A stretch of 64,000 nt of DNA. Origin: Bacilli bacterium (GTDB lineage Bacteria; Bacillota_I; Bacilli_A; RF39; UBA660). The translations under genes were made by a program, and so were the position numbers. Below the pieces are notes generated by a model. That model worked only from the letters and a program-made list of their open reading frames with translations, was not told where the DNA came from and did not search any database. The stretch lies in the NCBI GenBank assembly GCA_017428495.1, contig JAFRQS010000011.1, positions 74,920 through 138,919 on the forward strand, read 5' to 3'. Shown piece by piece: positions 13,614 through 22,533 of this stretch (positions are counted from its first letter, which is position 1; each line of letters begins with the position of its first letter).

Positions 13614-14138
13614 TTAACGTTTCAAAAGAAATCTTCTATTATATACATCTTTATCATTCAATTGATAATAATCTATAGCATCATTAACTATATAACTTGC
13701 TTTATATTTTTCTCTAAATCTTTCAATTTCCTCATCACTAAGTTTTAATCCAGAAACAAATCTAACAGTTCTATCTGGGCTCAAATTAAGCCCATACTCA
13801 ATAATTTCTTCTCTAGTTAATATCTTCAATATTTCTAAATTTTGTGCAGCATATAACCCATAATAACCATCATCCACTTCTACTACTCTATCTTGTTCTC
13901 TTTCTCTAATTTCACCAAAAGCACGTACCTCACATATAAATATATCTTCACATAAATTACTTTTATCAGATTTAAAAAATCTAAATGTATCCTCCATATT
14001 AGTACAAAAATGATATCCATGACCATCATTACCATATCTTACATCCTTATCAGTAGAATATATAATACCTTCTCTAATATCTATACCATATCTATTCTTA
14101 CCATTAGCATTAAAACATTTATATCCAAATAACTCCAT
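13614..14138 (-). CDS. hypothetical protein (conserved-looking GNDGHGYHFC motif)
   Basis: 174 aa ORF, no signal peptide; no family recognised by eye. Confidence 0.4.
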   Translation of the reverse strand: MELFGYKCFNANGKNRYGIDIREGIIYSTDKDVRYGNDGHGYHFCTNMEDTFRFFKSDKSNLCEDIFICEVRAFGEIREREQDRVVEVDDGYYGLYAAQNLEILKILTREEIIEYGLNLSPDRTVRFVSGLKLSDEEIERFREKYKASYIVNDAIDYYQLNDKDVYNRRFLLKR

Positions 14139-15124: not shown

Positions 15125-16393
15125 TTATTTATTACTTTCAATTATAAGAATAGATTTATTACGTAAATTTAATTTATTAATTATTGCATTCATTTCATCA
15201 ATATTTAAACTATTCAATATTTTATAAATATCAGTATAAATATTATCATATATTACTTTATTATTTAAAAACAACTTATTTGTCCTTTCTATATCATCTA
15301 GCATATACAATAAATTACTAATTTCTACTTTCTTTTTTCTTTCTAAATCCTCACTTAAAATTATTATATTATTTAAAACCTTATTTATCTCATTTATAAC
15401 TCTCTCATATTTTCTAGTTTTAAAACTTAATATAAATACTTTATAATTATCGACATCTATATTATCAATATCTATTGGTGTATCTATCAATTTTTTATTT
15501 TTGATTTTTTCATAAAATATTGATGTTTCATCAAATAATATATTAAACATATTAGATAAATATATATTAAGTTTTTTTCTATCAATTTTAAAATCATTCA
15601 AAGGTATTTTTATAGAATATGAAACTAATGGTATTGCTACATTATGTTTTATAATTTTTTTACTACATGCAACTATATTAGGTTCAATTACGCTCTTTAT
15701 ATTTATATTAACATCTTTAAATCTTTTACTATCTTGATTTTTTCTTATTATTTCGATAGCATTAGATGCATTTACATTACCTGTAATTACTATAAACATA
15801 TTTTTAGGATGATAAAACATATTATAACAAGTATATAAATCATCTTTTGTAATATTATCAATATCATTAATTGTTCCTGCTATTGAATACTTAATAGGAT
15901 GCACATTAAATAAAATATCTAATGTTTTTTCAAACAATATATTATCTGGCATATCATCATACATTTTTATTTCTTGTTTAATAATTCCCTTTTCTTTATT
16001 CACGTTCTTTTCAGTAAAGTATGGGGATTGTACAAAATCTAACAAATAATTTAAATTGTCTTCAAAATTATTTGTACCTGCAAATACATAGGAAGTATTA
16101 AAATAATTAGTAAATGCATTACAATAAGTACCTGAATTATTATAAAATACAAAAGGGTCTATACCATCTTCTTGGTCAAACATCTTATGCTCTAAAAAAT
16201 GAGCTATTCCATTGGGCATTTGAATATATTTATCATCAACTTTAAACTTATAATTACAACCCCCATATTTAGTAGTAAAAGTTACATAAAAATCATTAAC
16301 TGTATTATTAGGAATAACATATATTTCTAATCCATTAGATAATTTCTCATAATATACATTGTTATTATAAAAACTAATTTTCATCTTTTCCAT
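15125..16393 (-). CDS. M16-family zinc peptidase (active subunit, HxxEH)
   Basis: 422 aa; inverted zinc-binding motif HFLEH (GIAHFLEHKMF); overlaps upstream partner gene by about 20 nt. Confidence 0.7.
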   Translation of the reverse strand: MEKMKISFYNNNVYYEKLSNGLEIYVIPNNTVNDFYVTFTTKYGGCNYKFKVDDKYIQMPNGIAHFLEHKMFDQEDGIDPFVFYNNSGTYCNAFTNYFNTSYVFAGTNNFEDNLNYLLDFVQSPYFTEKNVNKEKGIIKQEIKMYDDMPDNILFEKTLDILFNVHPIKYSIAGTINDIDNITKDDLYTCYNMFYHPKNMFIVITGNVNASNAIEIIRKNQDSKRFKDVNINIKSVIEPNIVACSKKIIKHNVAIPLVSYSIKIPLNDFKIDRKKLNIYLSNMFNILFDETSIFYEKIKNKKLIDTPIDIDNIDVDNYKVFILSFKTRKYERVINEINKVLNNIIILSEDLERKKKVEISNLLYMLDDIERTNKLFLNNKVIYDNIYTDIYKILNSLNIDEMNAIINKLNLRNKSILIIESNK

Positions 16394-17639
16394 TTTTGCT
16401 TCCTTTCAAAAAATAAATGCTTGATATATATATTTTATTAGCTAATGCTTCTACATCTTTAGATGTAACCTTATTATAATTTAACACCTTTTTATTAATA
16501 GGATCTGCATTAAAAACTTCTATACCATAATAATAATTAATAATACTTGCTGGACTATCTAAAAGTGTTTCAATTGATGACAATATTTCTTTTCTAGCTG
16601 TTTCAACCTCTAAATCTTTAACATTTTTAAGATTAATTTCTTCTTTTATAAGATTTACTACAGTATCATAATTTTCCTCATCAATACCAGAACTTATCAT
16701 TAAAATTGAATTTGGACTGTTATTCATAGCACCAATTGAATAAGCTAAAGAATTTTTTTCTCTTACATTAACAAATAATCTAGATGTAGAGCCCGCACCC
16801 AAAATTGAAGTATATATTGGCAACACATATCTTCTCTCAAATAAGCTTAAATTTAGTACTTTACATATTATTGCTAATTTAGATTGACTTATATCCATAA
16901 CTTCAGATTTAGATTTTAATTTTGGTACCTGTTTATATGTTATAAATGGATCAACATCAATTGCTCTATTATTTTTAAATTTAAATTTAGACTCAATATA
17001 TCTTAATACCTCATTCTTATTCACATTACCAACTACAAATATATCAATTATATTAGTATCTAATACATGTTTATAGTATTCATATAATGATTTTTCTGTA
17101 ATATTATATAAATCTTTTTTATACCCCCACATATTAAATGATATTGGATCCATATTATCCATCAATTCTAAAGCTTTATTTAATGTATATTTTTGTGTAT
17201 TCTCTTTAGATGATTTAATTATTAAATTCAATTTATCTTTTACTATATTAAAATTTTTAGATTCAAATTCATTATTAACAACATTAGGATTAAATAATAT
17301 TTCAAATAATAAATCTATAGAATTATATAACAATCTCTCATCACTATATTTTTTATATAAAAATCTAATATCAATATAACTATTTATATAATTTCCAAAC
17401 TTTATATTAGAATGTGATAAACTTAAAGAATATAAATCTTCTAATTTAATTTCAAACAATCTAGAAGTATTATATTTTAATGTTGTACTAGTAAGCATTT
17501 GAAACAAAAATTTTCTTATTGTTATATCCTCTTTTTTTACTTTTTCTCTAAAATTAATAGAAATTGTTGTTGTCTTAAATTTATTAGTAGTTATAAAATG
17601 CACATTATATATACCATTATTTATTTTGCAGTATTTCAT
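16374..17639 (-). CDS. M16-family peptidase-like partner subunit (no HxxEH motif)
   Basis: M16 C-terminal domain-like organisation, lacks HxxEH; probable real start at MKYCKINNG (17639) rather than ORF-track 17675. Confidence 0.6.
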   Translation of the reverse strand: MKYCKINNGIYNVHFITTNKFKTTTISINFREKVKKEDITIRKFLFQMLTSTTLKYNTSRLFEIKLEDLYSLSLSHSNIKFGNYINSYIDIRFLYKKYSDERLLYNSIDLLFEILFNPNVVNNEFESKNFNIVKDKLNLIIKSSKENTQKYTLNKALELMDNMDPISFNMWGYKKDLYNITEKSLYEYYKHVLDTNIIDIFVVGNVNKNEVLRYIESKFKFKNNRAIDVDPFITYKQVPKLKSKSEVMDISQSKLAIICKVLNLSLFERRYVLPIYTSILGAGSTSRLFVNVREKNSLAYSIGAMNNSPNSILMISSGIDEENYDTVVNLIKEEINLKNVKDLEVETARKEILSSIETLLDSPASIINYYYGIEVFNADPINKKVLNYNKVTSKDVEALANKIYISSIYFLKGSKNGKDEN

Positions 17640-17677
17640 AGATCCTCCATTTAGTAGTATATGAAAAAAATACAATT

Positions 17678-18373
17678 TTATAGCTTTAATACTGAGTTAA
17701 GTGCTAAATCTATCATTTTTATTGTACTTTTTTCTCTTTCTTCACTTGTAAGTTTTTCACCAGTTATTAAACTATCTGATACAGTAAGAATACAAGCTGC
17801 ATTCTTATTTAACACTTTAGCGTTTGTAAACAATGCAAAAGATTCCATTTCTACAGCAATACAACCATAATTTAAATATTCACTATAATCTTTATTATAA
17901 AAGGTATCTGTACAATGAATATTACCTCTTACTACATTTATTCCATTATTATTTATAGTTTCCTCTATAACTTTATTTAAATTTAAAGATGCACTAATAT
18001 TATTCTCATTATAACCAAGATTAATGCCATATGCAGTATTACTATAAGATTTATCTACTAGAACTAAATCAAATAATTTTAAATCAGTAGTATATGCTCC
18101 ACAAGTACCAATTCTAATTATATAATCCACATTATAGTCATTAAATAATTCATAAGAATAAATACCCATTGAAGCATTACCCATACCACTAGCCATTACT
18201 GTTATTCTTTTGCCTTTGTAATATCCAGTATATCCAAGCATACCACGAACATTATTTATTAATTTATAATCAGTTAAAAATTTTTCTGCTATAAATTTAG
18301 CTCTATTTGGATCTCCTGGCATTATTACTACTTTACTTATGTCTTCTTTTAAAGCACCTATATGTACTGTCAT
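17678..18373 (-). CDS. deoD: purine nucleoside phosphorylase, DeoD type
   Basis: Aligns by eye with E. coli DeoD: VIMPGDPNRAKFIAEKFL...NNVRGMLGYTGYYKGKRITVMASGMG; start set at MTVHIGAL. Confidence 0.8.
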   Translation of the reverse strand: MTVHIGALKEDISKVVIMPGDPNRAKFIAEKFLTDYKLINNVRGMLGYTGYYKGKRITVMASGMGNASMGIYSYELFNDYNVDYIIRIGTCGAYTTDLKLFDLVLVDKSYSNTAYGINLGYNENNISASLNLNKVIEETINNNGINVVRGNIHCTDTFYNKDYSEYLNYGCIAVEMESFALFTNAKVLNKNAACILTVSDSLITGEKLTSEEREKSTIKMIDLALNSVLKL

Positions 18374-18414: not shown

Positions 18415-18948
18415 TCAATTCTTTACTTTACATTTACCAATTTCATCTTTTGTAATAATCATATCAGTTGTATTTTCATCAATAAATTCTTCATATCTTC
18501 TACATACTTCTAAATCAGATTCAAATTCTCTAACTAATTCCTCATATCCTTTTGCTACATAAATAACAGGCCTATTAAACATTAAATTCTTTCTTAATTC
18601 ATTATTTTTCTCTTCTGCATTTTCCTTAGCTTCTTCAAATGTATCAAATAATTCTACTACTATTTCAACTGGCCAAGGAGTCATATTGTAATTAAATCTA
18701 ATTGTATCTTTTTCGTCACTTTCTAGATTACTGTTTTTAAAATTTTTAATATTATTATATGGAAAAAATACTATATTAGACGTCTTTAATGTACCATCAA
18801 CAGAATATATAACAGCACTACTTAATACATAACATTTAGATGCTATATACCCCAATATTACCTTTTTATATCCTTGTAAATAACCACCCTGCTCTTTTAC
18901 TTCTAACACTGCATATTTTATTGGATATTTCATTACCATAATATTCAC
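18415..18948 (-). CDS. hypothetical protein, member A of a 3-gene tandem paralog array
   Basis: 177 aa; shares YP[IV]KYAV, GYI.SKCYV, FPY, ENTTDM, KCKVK motifs with the two upstream genes; no signal peptide. Confidence 0.6.
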   Translation of the reverse strand: MNIMVMKYPIKYAVLEVKEQGGYLQGYKKVILGYIASKCYVLSSAVIYSVDGTLKTSNIVFFPYNNIKNFKNSNLESDEKDTIRFNYNMTPWPVEIVVELFDTFEEAKENAEEKNNELRKNLMFNRPVIYVAKGYEELVREFESDLEVCRRYEEFIDENTTDMIITKDEIGKCKVKN

Positions 18949-19464
18949 CTATTCCTTAACTTTACGTTTAACTTTATCTACAACCATATCTGTTGTATTT
19001 TCTGAAATATAACTTTCATATAATCTACATGCTACAAATGTTCTATCAATTTGTTGAGATATTTTTTCTCTAGTTATAGAATGTTCTATATAAGCAATTT
19101 TTTCTTCTTTTAAATAAATATTTTTCCATTTTACTGCTAAAGCTGCTTCTTCATATGTATCATATAATTCATTAACTATAAATTCTGGATGTTCAAGATT
19201 TTCTCTTTCCGGTACACATCTTTGCTCATAGTAACTATCTCCATTTAAGTGTTTTCTAAAATATTCATTAAAATCACCAAATCTTCTATATGGAAAGGTT
19301 ACTATATGCCTAATAGTTGGTCCATCATTTCTATCATATTTAATTCTATCTTCAACAACATAACATTTTGATACAATGTATCCCTCTGTAATATCTCTAT
19401 ATTCTTCAGTAGAATCGCCTATAACTTTTAGTACTTCTACTGCATATTTTATTGGATAACTCAT
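18949..19464 (-). CDS. hypothetical protein, member B of tandem paralog array
   Basis: 171 aa; MSYPIKYAVEVLK...GYIVSKCYVVEDRIKY...VTFPYRRF...ISENTTDMVVDK. Confidence 0.6.
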   Translation of the reverse strand: MSYPIKYAVEVLKVIGDSTEEYRDITEGYIVSKCYVVEDRIKYDRNDGPTIRHIVTFPYRRFGDFNEYFRKHLNGDSYYEQRCVPERENLEHPEFIVNELYDTYEEAALAVKWKNIYLKEEKIAYIEHSITREKISQQIDRTFVACRLYESYISENTTDMVVDKVKRKVKE

Positions 19465-19483
19465 ATTAAAATCTCCTTTTCAA

Positions 19484-20005
19484 CTAAATTTTAACTTTAC
19501 ATTTTTCTTTATCTACAACCATATCTGTTGTATTTTCTGAAATAAAAATTGCATATTCTCTACATAAATCTAAATCCTCATCAATTTGTTTGCTTAAACT
19601 TTCAAATTGTGCACTTGATGTATGTAATAACAGCTCACTTTTTAAATTATTGTTTCTTCTTTCTGCTTCAAGATATGCATCTTCAATATTATCATATAAT
19701 TTTTCCATAACAACTAATTCTTCTAATGAAGGTATGTTTCTTTGTTCATAATATGCTTGCGGTAAACGGAATGGACTTGTATGTATATTTTTAAGTATTT
19801 TATTATATCTAATAAAGTCTTCAAATCTACTATATGGAAATGTTACAGCATGCACAACATATGGAGTATGTCCACCATATCTAATTCTGTCTTCTATAAC
19901 ATAACACTTTGATACAATATATCCTTTTATTGTGTCTTGGTAATCTTCAACGTATCCACCTTCAATTTTTAATTCTTCTACTGCATATTTAACTGGGTAA
20001 CTCAT
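19484..20005 (-). CDS. hypothetical protein, member C of tandem paralog array
   Basis: 173 aa; MSYPVKYAVEELK...GYIVSKCYVIEDRIRY...VTFPYSRF...ISENTTDMVVDKEKCKVKI; 8 nt downstream of lon stop. Confidence 0.6.
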   Translation of the reverse strand: MSYPVKYAVEELKIEGGYVEDYQDTIKGYIVSKCYVIEDRIRYGGHTPYVVHAVTFPYSRFEDFIRYNKILKNIHTSPFRLPQAYYEQRNIPSLEELVVMEKLYDNIEDAYLEAERRNNNLKSELLLHTSSAQFESLSKQIDEDLDLCREYAIFISENTTDMVVDKEKCKVKI

Positions 20006-20013
20006 AATTCCTC

Positions 20014-22332
20014 CTAAAATACTATTTTATATACTTCTTTATATTTTTTAACAAATATAAATTTAATATCTTTTTTTATTTCTTCTGGTATTTCATCTAA
20101 ATCTTTTTCATTTTTAATAGGTAAAATAATAGTTTTAATACCACTTCTATGTGCACCTATACATTTTTCTTTTAATCCACCTATAGGCAATATTTCTCCT
20201 CTTAATGTTATTTCACCTGTCATACCTATTTTATTATTAATAGCTTTATTTGTAAATGCACTTATTATAGCAGTAGTAAGTGTTATTCCTGCAGATGGAC
20301 CATCTTTTGGTACAGCACCTTCTGGTACATGTATATGTATATCACTATTTTCAAGTAAATCATAATCTATATTAAATTCTTTATAATGACTTTTTATATA
20401 ACTTAGTGCTATCTTGGCACTTTCTTTCATTACGTCACCCAAAGAACCAGTAAGAGTAAGTTCTCCTTTACCTTTATAATAACATACTTCAATAGGCAAA
20501 ATAGTACCACCAAATTCTGTATATGCAAGACCATTTGCTACTCCACTAGGAAGAGGCTCATTTTCTTCATCTAAATATCTTTTCTTACCTAAATATTCTT
20601 CAATATTTTTTTCAGTAATAGAATATTTTTTCTTAGTACTAATTTTATTTACAATATTAGTACTTATTTTTCTTAATACATCTGCTATTTTTCTTTCTAA
20701 ATCTCTTACTCCAGCTTCTTTAGTATAATTTCTAATAATAGAAAGTATTGCACCATCACTAAATGTTACATCCTTACTAGTTAAACCATGCTCTAATATT
20801 TCTCTTTTAATTAAATGCTTTTTAGCAATATCTAACTTTTCTAATTCTGTATAACCACTAAGCTCAATTATTTCTAATCTATCTCTTAAAGCTTCGGGTA
20901 TTTGATATAAATAATTAGCTGTTAATATAAACATAACATTTGATAAATCAAATTCTTCTTCTACATAACTATCTACAAAATATTTGTTCTGTTCTGGATC
21001 TAACACTTCAAGTAAAGAACTAGCAGGATCACCTTTTATATCTTTAGTCATCTTATCTATTTCATCAATTAAAAATACAGGATTATTACTATTACATTTT
21101 TTCATAGCAGTAATAATTTTACCAGGATTAGATCCAATATAAGTTCTTCTATGTCCTACTATTTCAGCTTCATCATTAACTCCACCAACACTTATTTTAA
21201 CAAAGTTTCTATTAGTAGCATCTGCAATACTCCTAGCAAGAGATGTTTTTCCTACACCTGGTGGACCAACTAAACATATTATTGGACTTTTTAAATTATT
21301 CGATAACTGCTTAACTGCCAAATATTCTATAATTCTATCTTTAACTTTATCAAGTCCATAATGAGTAGAATCTAATTTCTTTCTAGCTAATTTTAAATCT
21401 TTATTTTCATTTGTTTTAACTTCCCATGGTAAAGATAATAATAATTCAATATAATTTCTTACAACACCAACTTCTGGTGAATTAGAATTCATTAATTCAT
21501 ATTTCTTTAACTCATTATATAATTTATCTTTTATATAACTTGGACATTTAAACTTATCAATTTTTACTTTTAATAAGTTTACATCTGATTCTTTTAAATT
21601 AACATCCCCAAGTTCTTCTCTTATTAATCTTATTTTTTCTCTTAATATAAATTCCTTTTGATTATCATCTAAAGTCTTTTTTAATTTAATATCTATCTTT
21701 TTATCTAATTCTAATATTTCTTCTTCAGTCTTTATATCTTCAAACAACATTATTACCCTTTTATAAGGATTAACTGTAGTTAAATATTCTAATTTTCTTT
21801 CAAATTCGATTGGCAAATAATTTGCAACAATATCACTTATTTTTGAAATACTATTTAGTTCTCCTATTTGTGCTAAAACACTATTACTTACATTTGGCAC
21901 ATTAGATACATATGCTTCTACTCTTCTTTGCAATTTTCTTATTAATGCTTTCTCATCAACAGGAGACATAGCAAACTGTGTAGTGCTTGTAATAACCGCA
22001 TCTAATATATTGGCTTCACCTTCATAATCTTTATATTCCAATACATTTACTCTATTTATTCCTTCAAGAACAATTCTAGTAGTTCTTCCGATTTGCATTT
22101 TCATTGTTACTTTAGCAACTGTACCTATTTTAGGCAATTTATTAATATCAATATTTTCATCAAGTGGATTAACTTGACTAACTAAAAGAATGTGGGAGTC
22201 ATGATTCATTTCTGATACATCTAATACATGCTTATCTATATCATTATTTAATTCTAACCTAAATTCACAATATGGTAGTAATACTGCACCTCTAAGTATT
22301 ATTACTGGTAAATTAGTTTTAATCATAAGCAT
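20014..22332 (-). CDS. lon: ATP-dependent protease Lon (La)
   Basis: 772 aa; Lon N-domain, Walker A GPPGVGKTS, proteolytic Ser-Lys dyad region PKDGPSAGIT...; RBS GGGAGGG upstream of ATG at 22330-22332. Confidence 0.9.
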   Translation of the reverse strand: MLMIKTNLPVIILRGAVLLPYCEFRLELNNDIDKHVLDVSEMNHDSHILLVSQVNPLDENIDINKLPKIGTVAKVTMKMQIGRTTRIVLEGINRVNVLEYKDYEGEANILDAVITSTTQFAMSPVDEKALIRKLQRRVEAYVSNVPNVSNSVLAQIGELNSISKISDIVANYLPIEFERKLEYLTTVNPYKRVIMLFEDIKTEEEILELDKKIDIKLKKTLDDNQKEFILREKIRLIREELGDVNLKESDVNLLKVKIDKFKCPSYIKDKLYNELKKYELMNSNSPEVGVVRNYIELLLSLPWEVKTNENKDLKLARKKLDSTHYGLDKVKDRIIEYLAVKQLSNNLKSPIICLVGPPGVGKTSLARSIADATNRNFVKISVGGVNDEAEIVGHRRTYIGSNPGKIITAMKKCNSNNPVFLIDEIDKMTKDIKGDPASSLLEVLDPEQNKYFVDSYVEEEFDLSNVMFILTANYLYQIPEALRDRLEIIELSGYTELEKLDIAKKHLIKREILEHGLTSKDVTFSDGAILSIIRNYTKEAGVRDLERKIADVLRKISTNIVNKISTKKKYSITEKNIEEYLGKKRYLDEENEPLPSGVANGLAYTEFGGTILPIEVCYYKGKGELTLTGSLGDVMKESAKIALSYIKSHYKEFNIDYDLLENSDIHIHVPEGAVPKDGPSAGITLTTAIISAFTNKAINNKIGMTGEITLRGEILPIGGLKEKCIGAHRSGIKTIILPIKNEKDLDEIPEEIKKDIKFIFVKKYKEVYKIVF

Positions 22333-22502
22333 ACCCTCCCAGAAACAATAATTATTATACTTATTTTATATTTTTTGTCTATCAAAAAATCAATAAATTT
22401 TTAACTTTTTTATACTAATATTTTTTTATTGTTTTTTTTCATTTTTTTGATAGACATTAATAATTTATTATGCTATCATAAAGGTCAAAGATATTATGGA
22501 AA

Positions 22503-22533
22503 TTAAAAAGGCATTTAATATAAATGCCTTTTA
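22503..22533 (-). terminator. rho-independent terminator of EamA-family gene (upstream edge of lon promoter region)
   Basis: AGGCATTTA-ATA-TAAATGCCT hairpin overlapping stop codon, followed on minus strand by CTTTTTAATTT. Confidence 0.5.

Follow-up and report, generated by a model that had tools for sequence, protein, structure and literature searches.

The 64,000-nucleotide stretch analyzed here (hereafter the window; positions 74,920 to 138,919 of contig JAFRQS010000011.1, assembly GCA_017428495.1, from a Bacilli bacterium) carries three consecutive related genes, A, B and C, between the protease gene lon and the purine nucleoside phosphorylase gene deoD. They are real, intact genes under selection. 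They belong to a family of proteins of about 175 amino acids (aa) which, together with its predicted fold, appears to be undescribed as far as the searches reach; what is new is the unclassified family and fold, not a mechanism. The array is a lineage-specific, recombining amplification of a gene that is ordinarily single-copy and position-labile. A tentative proposal, possible but rather doubtful, is that A, B and C have an accessory role coupled to the Lon protease.

Paralogy of genes A, B and C

As the original prediction had it, three consecutive minus-strand open reading frames (ORFs) of about 170 aa lie between lon and deoD, and a gap of 8 nucleotides (nt) separates lon, which ends at 20014, from gene A, which begins at 20005. 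All three frames are intact, with spacers of 19 nt between A and B and of 9–15 nt between B and C. That they encode diverged paralogues was also borne out, the BLASTP scores being far above chance (E-values of 9e-28 for A and C and 4e-20 for B and C). The closest pair is A and B, with 52% protein identity, and not the outer two genes as first thought (A and C, 37–39%; B and C, 34–37%). Some of the motifs first attributed to all three copies fit only two of them: B has KRKVK instead of KCKVK, and A has YA instead of YE. The array does consist of tandem diverged paralogues, but it is not a simple triplication, as gene C comes from a separate deep lineage (bootstrap 98–99). In a bootstrapped neighbor-joining tree, A and B are found with P0003, P0005, P0006, P0007 and P0030 in one clade (bootstrap 99) and C with P0008 and P0014 in another (bootstrap 98); these A/B-type and C-type clades are not resolved as sisters.

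Direct DNA repeats run through the array with a period of one gene. The 87-nt tracts shared by the 3' ends of A and B (Table 1) are likely substrates for unequal crossing-over or gene conversion.

A family without match in curated libraries

An exhaustive profile search yielded 561 family representatives at 50% identity, 384 of them with E ≤ 1e-10. A word-indexed search returned 66 clusters, every one annotated as hypothetical and without Pfam domains. No match for A, B or C was found in Pfam, NCBIfam, PHROGs or PADLOC. When 65 family members were compared with Pfam only noise was obtained, the single match being that of one member to Immunity protein 22 (E = 0.032). The family profile retrieved nothing from the PDB sequences, and nothing was retrieved from the BFVD structures. 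The N-terminal β-domain alone as query retrieved short unannotated proteins only; among these, P0217 was inspected and proved to be part of a decayed long form of the family, with a frameshift and a TAG codon. The earlier statement that no known family can be assigned therefore stands, the curated libraries and the PDB profile search having given noise only, and structure prediction produced a confident model with no solved fold neighbor.

The near-invariant signature of the family is N-terminal and consists of Y-P-x-K-Y-A in strand 1, G-[YF]-I-x-S-K-C-Y-V in strand 2 and V-x-F-P-[YF] in strand 3. Further conserved features are D-x-[YF]-E-[ED]-A...N at the start of a helix and C-x-x-[YF]-E...T-x-D-M, which closes the last helix. 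Residues P4, K6, Y7, A8, S32, K33, C34, F56 and P57 are invariant across sequences that are otherwise 25–35% identical, long forms included. Residues 75–97 form a poorly conserved, indel-rich loop.

The AlphaFold2 model, computed from a 65-sequence alignment, has a predicted local distance difference test score (pLDDT) of 90.3 and a predicted template modeling score (pTM) of 0.84. Three long antiparallel strands come first, then a helix and the variable loop; a short strand leads into a helical hairpin, both helices of which are long, and the chain ends in a flexible tail. The N-terminal three-stranded β-meander would at best be Tudor/PWWP-like. For two independent models, the only structural neighbors to recur were royal-family folds (Tudor, chromo-barrel, PWWP), and PWWP domains have the same gross layout of a β-barrel followed by helices; the resemblance is sub-threshold, and the integrase C-terminal domain is also among the weak structural neighbors. 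The tail after T-x-DM is predicted with low confidence and is flexible (pLDDT 78, then 48). It is kept as a Lys-rich motif, also in copies that are not linked to lon.

The products of A, B and C are acidic (pI of about 5) with a short Lys-rich tail, and their maximum Kyte–Doolittle value over a 19-residue window is 0.25–1.5. The absence of a hydrophobic segment together with this pI points to cytoplasmic proteins, as had been predicted.

Some members are long forms of 300–340 aa, in which the family domain is followed by a conserved α/β C-terminal domain of about 150 aa (pLDDT 80–90). Examples are P0164, P0181, P0193 and 16 other proteins, and the gene at L054:5947-6981. The additional domain has no Pfam match, no word-indexed match outside these proteins and no fold neighbor. 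That it is a second family repeat was rejected (hhalign probability 0.1%). Two family domains in a single chain do occur in P0142. At L069:1378-2380, and also in L070 and L071, a frameshift close to position 1650 together with an in-frame TAG splits the long-form gene into ORFs of 92, 46 and 170 aa, with the helix motifs going on in the other frame. This decayed long form is present in assemblies from at least three samples, and in L069 it is followed by an NT5C deoxyribonucleotidase gene.

The lon slot is a dynamic cassette

A single genus-level clade accounts for all linkage to lon. Its gene order, tig-(EamA)-lon-[family]-deoD-M16-M16, was observed in no fewer than six lineages, with Lon proteins that are 91–99% identical. 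The slot between lon and deoD holds one to three copies, and three or more deep paralogue types are represented in it. The arrangement A-B-C occurs in the window and in L060. L013, L055–59, L061 and L063 have a 176-aa A-like gene (A') and then C. A single A-type gene is found in L014 and a single C-type gene in L067, and GCA_016648615.1 has a 163-aa gene followed by an A/B-type gene. In L065, a C-type gene is accompanied by a 164-aa protein of a third type, which is 27–41% identical to all others and matches the family profile with an E-value of 8e-37.

The window and L013 represent one species, as their flanks are 95–100% identical and the number of synonymous substitutions per synonymous site (dS) of lon is 0.086. 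Gene B is missing in L013, and two structural haplotypes thus exist within one species. The gene C proteins of the two are 100% identical (dS 0.054, the dS of the flanks being about 0.05–0.09). Gene A and the L013 allele have 73% protein identity, with a dS of 0.555 and a ratio of nonsynonymous to synonymous rates (dN/dS, by the Nei–Gojobori method throughout) of 0.29. This depth is comparable to the divergence of lon from that of the sister species L014 (dS 0.65). The first gene of L013 is a mosaic, mostly A-like and B-like around residues 91–105 and in the C-terminal tail. In L015, the GTDB representative of a related species, lon is about 90% identical in DNA and gene A is near-identical (dS 0.021). 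The depth of the L013 allele and the near-identity of the L015 allele indicate that the lon-proximal slot holds old alleles exchanged within and between species. The signature of an old allele is found again, independently, in the clade where the family gene precedes ligA: between L017 and L022 the dS is 0.49 for the family gene, 0.098 for ligA and 0.032 for the next gene. The slot is a dynamic cassette whose content has changed through duplication, through unequal crossing-over and through exchange of alleles, both within a species and between species.

The L015 contig, from the RUG12915 metagenome-assembled genome (MAG), stops right after gene A (L015:3516-6548). The array may therefore break assemblies, and copy numbers in MAGs may be under-reported.

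Gene context outside the lon-linked clade

The distribution was scanned with one genome per GTDB species, copies being counted within ±6 kb. Forty loci were obtained, all from uncultured gut or rumen MAGs labeled by their submitters as Bacilli, Tenericutes, Erysipelotrichaceae or similar. The family is restricted to uncultured low-GC gut and rumen Bacilli, and it is single-copy at every scanned locus except that of the species of the window.

The family gene relocates between genera. It is directly upstream of ligA in about 10 species and upstream of pcrA-x-ligA in 4–5 species; in L016, pcrA is three genes away (+3). It lies between recD2 and ileS in L005, after an HD dGTPase-type gene in L011, and after an HD_3/YfbR-like (5'-deoxynucleotidase) gene in L032. 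Elsewhere it adjoins genes for an M23 peptidase, a metallophosphoesterase, an Mrr-type nuclease or uncharacterized proteins. Gaps to the neighbors outside the lon-linked clade are often 70–490 nt.

No polymorphic-toxin, secretion or multi-gene defense theme was found among 150 unique neighbor families (±3 genes), and their recurrent matches include no toxin or secretion domain. The PADLOC matches among them are cross-matches of PcrA, RecD2 and Fic, and one reverse transcriptase. Relatives of the family were not found in IMG/VR viral contigs, INPHARED phages, PLSDB plasmids, PHROGs or BFVD, and a phage or plasmid origin was rejected as IMG/VR, INPHARED and PLSDB contain no relative.

Two further observations on neighbors are recorded here. 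In human-gut species, a variable region upstream of the pair formed by the family gene and ligA contains a 316-aa RVT_1 gene (L001:1789-2739 and L008:2214-3164); one of the 150 neighbor proteins matches retron/DRT-type reverse-transcriptase models with an E-value of about 1e-124. A protein of about 210 aa without Pfam match (cluster c46) is encoded one to three genes 3' of the family gene at L032:7010-7705, L044:6567-7196 and in L051. It is the sole uncharacterized neighbor that recurs across distinct lineages, in three different contexts.

Evolutionary rate

The family gene consistently evolves faster than the genes around it. In the lon clade, Lon proteins are 91–95% identical and same-type orthologues of the family 51–62%. 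The corresponding figures are 97–99% for LigA and 66–75% for the family in the ligA clade, and 84–98% for PcrA and 69–90% for the family in the pcrA clade. The dN/dS of the family is 0.14–0.42 in well-conditioned comparisons and 0.68 between A and B, compared with 0.03–0.05 for lon, ligA and pcrA and 0.1–0.25 for other accessory neighbors. Purifying selection is thus about tenfold weaker on the family than on housekeeping genes. Gene-wide positive selection was not seen, with dN/dS values of 0.07–0.68 for informative pairs; the values above 1 (1.36 for B and C, 1.23 for L001 and L031) are not meaningful, as they result from saturation or from six substitutions.

Locus layout and expression signals

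The window is very AT-rich (19–34% GC per kb), and nearly all its genes are on the minus strand. Features around the array are collected in Table 1. The orthologous Lon of L013 contains the LON_substr_bdg, AAA, Lon_lid and Lon_C domains and is 99% identical to that of the window. The junction TTTTAGGAGGAAnTATG, in which the stop codon of lon is part of the ribosome-binding site of gene A, is the same in the four genomes inspected for it (L013, L014, L065 and that of the window).

Table 1. Positions of the array, its neighboring genes, expression signals and repeats in the window.
Feature	Position	Strand	Remarks
Gene A	19484-20005	minus	173 aa; A/B-type member in the lon-proximal hypervariable slot; P0001, IJK66_01485
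Gene B	18949-19464	minus	171 aa; A/B-type member, missing in the two-copy haplotype; P0002, IJK66_01480
Gene C	18415-18939	minus	172-174 aa; C-type member, invariant between haplotypes; P0004, IJK66_01475
lon	20014-22332	minus	LonA-type ATP-dependent protease, 770-772 aa; ORF
lon stop TAG within the AGGAGG ribosome-binding site of gene A	20006-20019	minus	8-nt spacer; from reading of the sequence
Sigma-70-like promoter match	22354-22381	minus	TAGACA-16-TATAAT, 11/12; best match upstream of lon, by consensus only
Hairpin and T-run (AAAAGGCATTTATATTAAATGCCTTTTTAATTT)	22501-22532	minus	After the stop of the EamA-type membrane gene; read directly, a consensus scan gave none there
deoD	17678-18373	minus	deoD-type purine nucleoside phosphorylase (PNP_UDP_1 in L013); next gene 3' of C
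87-nt tract, gene A 3' end and spacer	19479-19565		85% identical to the gene B 3' end; repeat family D4
Partner of the 87-nt tract, gene B 3' end and spacer	18944-19030		Repeat family D4

The hairpin downstream of the EamA-type gene is a likely terminator, after which a new transcription unit would begin with lon. No terminator-like site was found between lon and deoD. Co-transcription of A, B and C with lon is plausible, as predicted from the promoter-like site, the likely terminator upstream of it and the lack of a terminator-like site within the unit. An Rfam scan of 16–25 kb of the window detected no RNA element.

Two gene starts need comment. The ORF list runs gene C to a GTG at 18948 (18415-18948, 177 aa). 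The family alignment makes a start at one of two ATG codons, 18939 or 18933, more likely, giving M(VM)KYPIKYAV. For deoD, gene callers use a TTG at 18418 that overlaps the TGA stop codon of gene C (TTGA) and lengthens the protein by 15 hydrophobic residues. We take the ATG at 18373 as the start, since the protein then begins with MTVHIGA..., similar to the N-termini of canonical DeoD proteins. At 18418-18390, a promoter-like site (TTGATA-17-TATACT with the TG of an extended -10) overlaps the end of gene C. As it is just upstream of this ATG, deoD may have its own promoter.

Further downstream, two adjacent genes of M16-family peptidases (433 and 422 aa) overlap by 20 nt at 15125-17675 on the minus strand, and this pair 3' of deoD is kept in all lon-linked genomes. 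A 174-aa ORF (13614-14138, minus strand) directly 3' of a tilS-like (ATP_bind_3) gene is without Pfam annotation in L013. Its position is kept in sisters (174 aa in L013, 171 aa in L065), and it is not a member of the array family.

Discussion

A Lon-coupled accessory role for A, B and C, the tentative proposal made above, would work as follows. The family copies would be translated from the lon mRNA by translational coupling, in fixed ratio to Lon. They would be non-enzymatic, Lon-associated accessory proteins, either modulators of specificity or activity or dedicated regulated substrates. A conserved partner may be bound through the conserved β-face and the tail, and alternative specificities may come from the variable loop and the helical hairpin, which differ among the paralogues. 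The link to Lon is suggested by adjacency in one syntenic clade, and nothing decisive contradicts it.

Of the three dedicated Lon modulators known, each is small and restricted to its lineage, and further ones are anticipated in other lineages (PMC10665427). Like SmiA, the adaptor of Bacillus subtilis, HspQ/YccV, the specificity-enhancing factor of enterobacteria, and LarA, the allosteric activator of α-proteobacteria, the products of A, B and C are small, cytosolic and lineage-restricted. Their conserved C-terminal tail is flexible, and the predicted lon transcript encodes them. In HspQ and LarA an accessible C-terminal segment makes the contact with Lon, and both are themselves Lon substrates (PMC10665427). 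The family differs from HspQ/YccV in that the YccV-like (hemimethylated-DNA-binding) domain was not found in it by sequence or fold. Another protein of comparable size, about 160 aa, is the Lon inhibitor PinA of phage T4, whose sole known role is to act on Lon. PinA is phage-encoded, whereas the family has no match among PHROGs, phage genomes or viral structures.

Several observations weigh against a Lon-coupled role. The family gene does not adjoin lon in any other sampled genus. In the sole lon-linked clade, the whole tig-EamA-lon-...-deoD-M16-M16 block is syntenic; adjacency to lon is thus weak evidence for the Lon adaptors or substrates considered in the original prediction, as block synteny predicts a kept position whatever the function. 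The Lys-rich C-terminal tail is family-wide and unlike the known hydrophobic Lon degrons. A search for heat-shock operators (CIRCE, CtsR) gave nothing convincing ahead of lon or ahead of 41 family genes at other loci. Strains with A alleles that are 27% divergent have Lon proteins with 99% identity, an unexpected pattern for a tight partner of Lon. The invariant Ser, Lys, Cys and Tyr residues could form a catalytic or ligand site and not a pure binding module. Finally, the decayed copy in L069–71 indicates that at least one lineage can do without the family. The notion that the KCKVK tail is a Lon degron particular to the lon-linked copies was rejected because the basic tail is family-wide; the tail KVKLPKKR of L014 bridges that of the lon clade to the KILKPxKK of the other clades.

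The persistence of the nine invariant residues amid such low identity would also fit a lineage-specific protein unrelated to Lon, possibly a small enzyme or a ligand or redox sensor built on the Lys/Ser/Lys/Cys/Tyr cluster, which merely uses the lon promoter in this genus and whose copy number reflects neutral duplication and loss under weak constraint. The free relocation of the gene among genera, the pseudogenized copy in L069–71 and a dN/dS below 1 wherever counts are adequate, which fits relaxed purifying selection better than an arms race, point the same way. We nevertheless consider this doubtful. There is no invariant His or Asp, no recognizable catalytic fold or cofactor motif and no Pfam or PDB match; neutral turnover poorly explains allele dS values 5–10 times those of the flanks in two independent genera, and it leaves the strict keeping of the stop codon within the ribosome-binding site unexplained. 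The gene neighbors outside the lon clade suggest instead an accessory factor of DNA or deoxynucleotide metabolism, whose Tudor/PWWP-like barrel and basic tail would bind nucleic acid or an enzyme of replication, repair or deoxynucleoside triphosphate salvage. The position after lon would then be incidental, and deoD the more relevant neighbor. Besides ligA, pcrA-x-ligA and deoD, the neighbors in question, which come from independent lineages, are recD2, the HD dGTPase, HD_3/YfbR-like and NT5C genes, and the pcrA/ligA association spans groups in which the family proteins are about 32% and LigA 57% identical. The weak structural neighbors (PWWP, Tudor, integrase C-terminal domain) are typically readers of nucleic acid or chromatin, and the proteins combine an acidic body with a Lys-rich tail. 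Such a role is unlikely all the same, as the wide gaps at these loci probably mean separate transcription units, and the enrichment is marginal by a rough, post hoc estimate (about 7 immediate neighbors observed versus about 3.5 expected, the latter reflecting small genomes rich in informational genes). Moreover, the dN/dS of the family is about tenfold above that of ligA or pcrA, both of which are outside the 64-kb window.

The original prediction favored an orphan array of immunity proteins, antitoxins or anti-phage decoys, in which each paralogue would neutralize a different toxin or phage effector and conflict would drive the variation. Orphan immunity arrays are known, such as EsaG/DUF600 in staphylococci and the acquired interbacterial defense clusters in Bacteroidales. 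In the lon clade only, the family resembles them by its tandem, diverged, small, acidic and cytoplasmic paralogues with strain variation in copy number and alleles. The two structural haplotypes in one species, the deep alleles confined to the lon-proximal slot, the allele exchange between species (L015; L017 versus L022), a dN/dS raised relative to the neighbors, and the variable region with reverse-transcriptase genes bordered by the family gene in the ligA clade would all suit such a role. The absence of an adjoining toxin gene, correctly noted from the start since the neighbors of the array are lon and deoD, extends to some 45 contexts, none of which has an adjoining toxin, LXG/WXG/type VII secretion, nuclease-toxin or multi-gene defense gene. 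There is no association with mobile elements and no match to an immunity family in Pfam, to PHROGs or to PADLOC (A, B and C at E ≤ 1), and neither viral contigs and phage genomes nor plasmids and BFVD contain a relative. Immunity families are typically patchy and horizontally spread, whereas this one is confined to one bacterial clade, with fixed positions within genera. Single-copy orthologues linked neither to lon nor to toxins had been named as what would contradict an immunity array, and they are found at housekeeping loci in about 40 other species. The suspicion of an arms race finds some unexpected support in the strain haplotypes and allele exchange and none in the gene-wide dN/dS, which is below 1. 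Only the population-level variability speaks for a role in conflict, and an immunity or decoy array is accordingly very unlikely. Nor does the locus resemble a type II toxin–antitoxin system, as there is no bicistronic pairing with a toxin: the array is flanked by lon and deoD, and family genes at other loci by housekeeping or unrelated genes. Overall, the family resembles no known system that can be named with confidence.

If the Lon-coupled role is carried further, the lon operon of this genus would be a polymorphic cassette array of Lon specificity factors, the paralogue types selecting different clients. This extension is quite improbable. If true, the clients might be foreign or conflict-related, and strains would reshuffle the targets of Lon by recombination; both an adaptor family encoded in cis with lon and a diversifying set of adaptors for an AAA+ protease would be without precedent.

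A strain-variable family translationally coupled to lon would be a testable candidate for a Lon modulator in a large uncultured branch of gut Bacilli. Apart from Lon, a family of 561 representatives with a confident predicted fold and no solved neighbor is a clean target for annotation. The locus itself is a compact natural case of duplication, unequal crossing-over and inter-species allele exchange within a highly conserved housekeeping operon.

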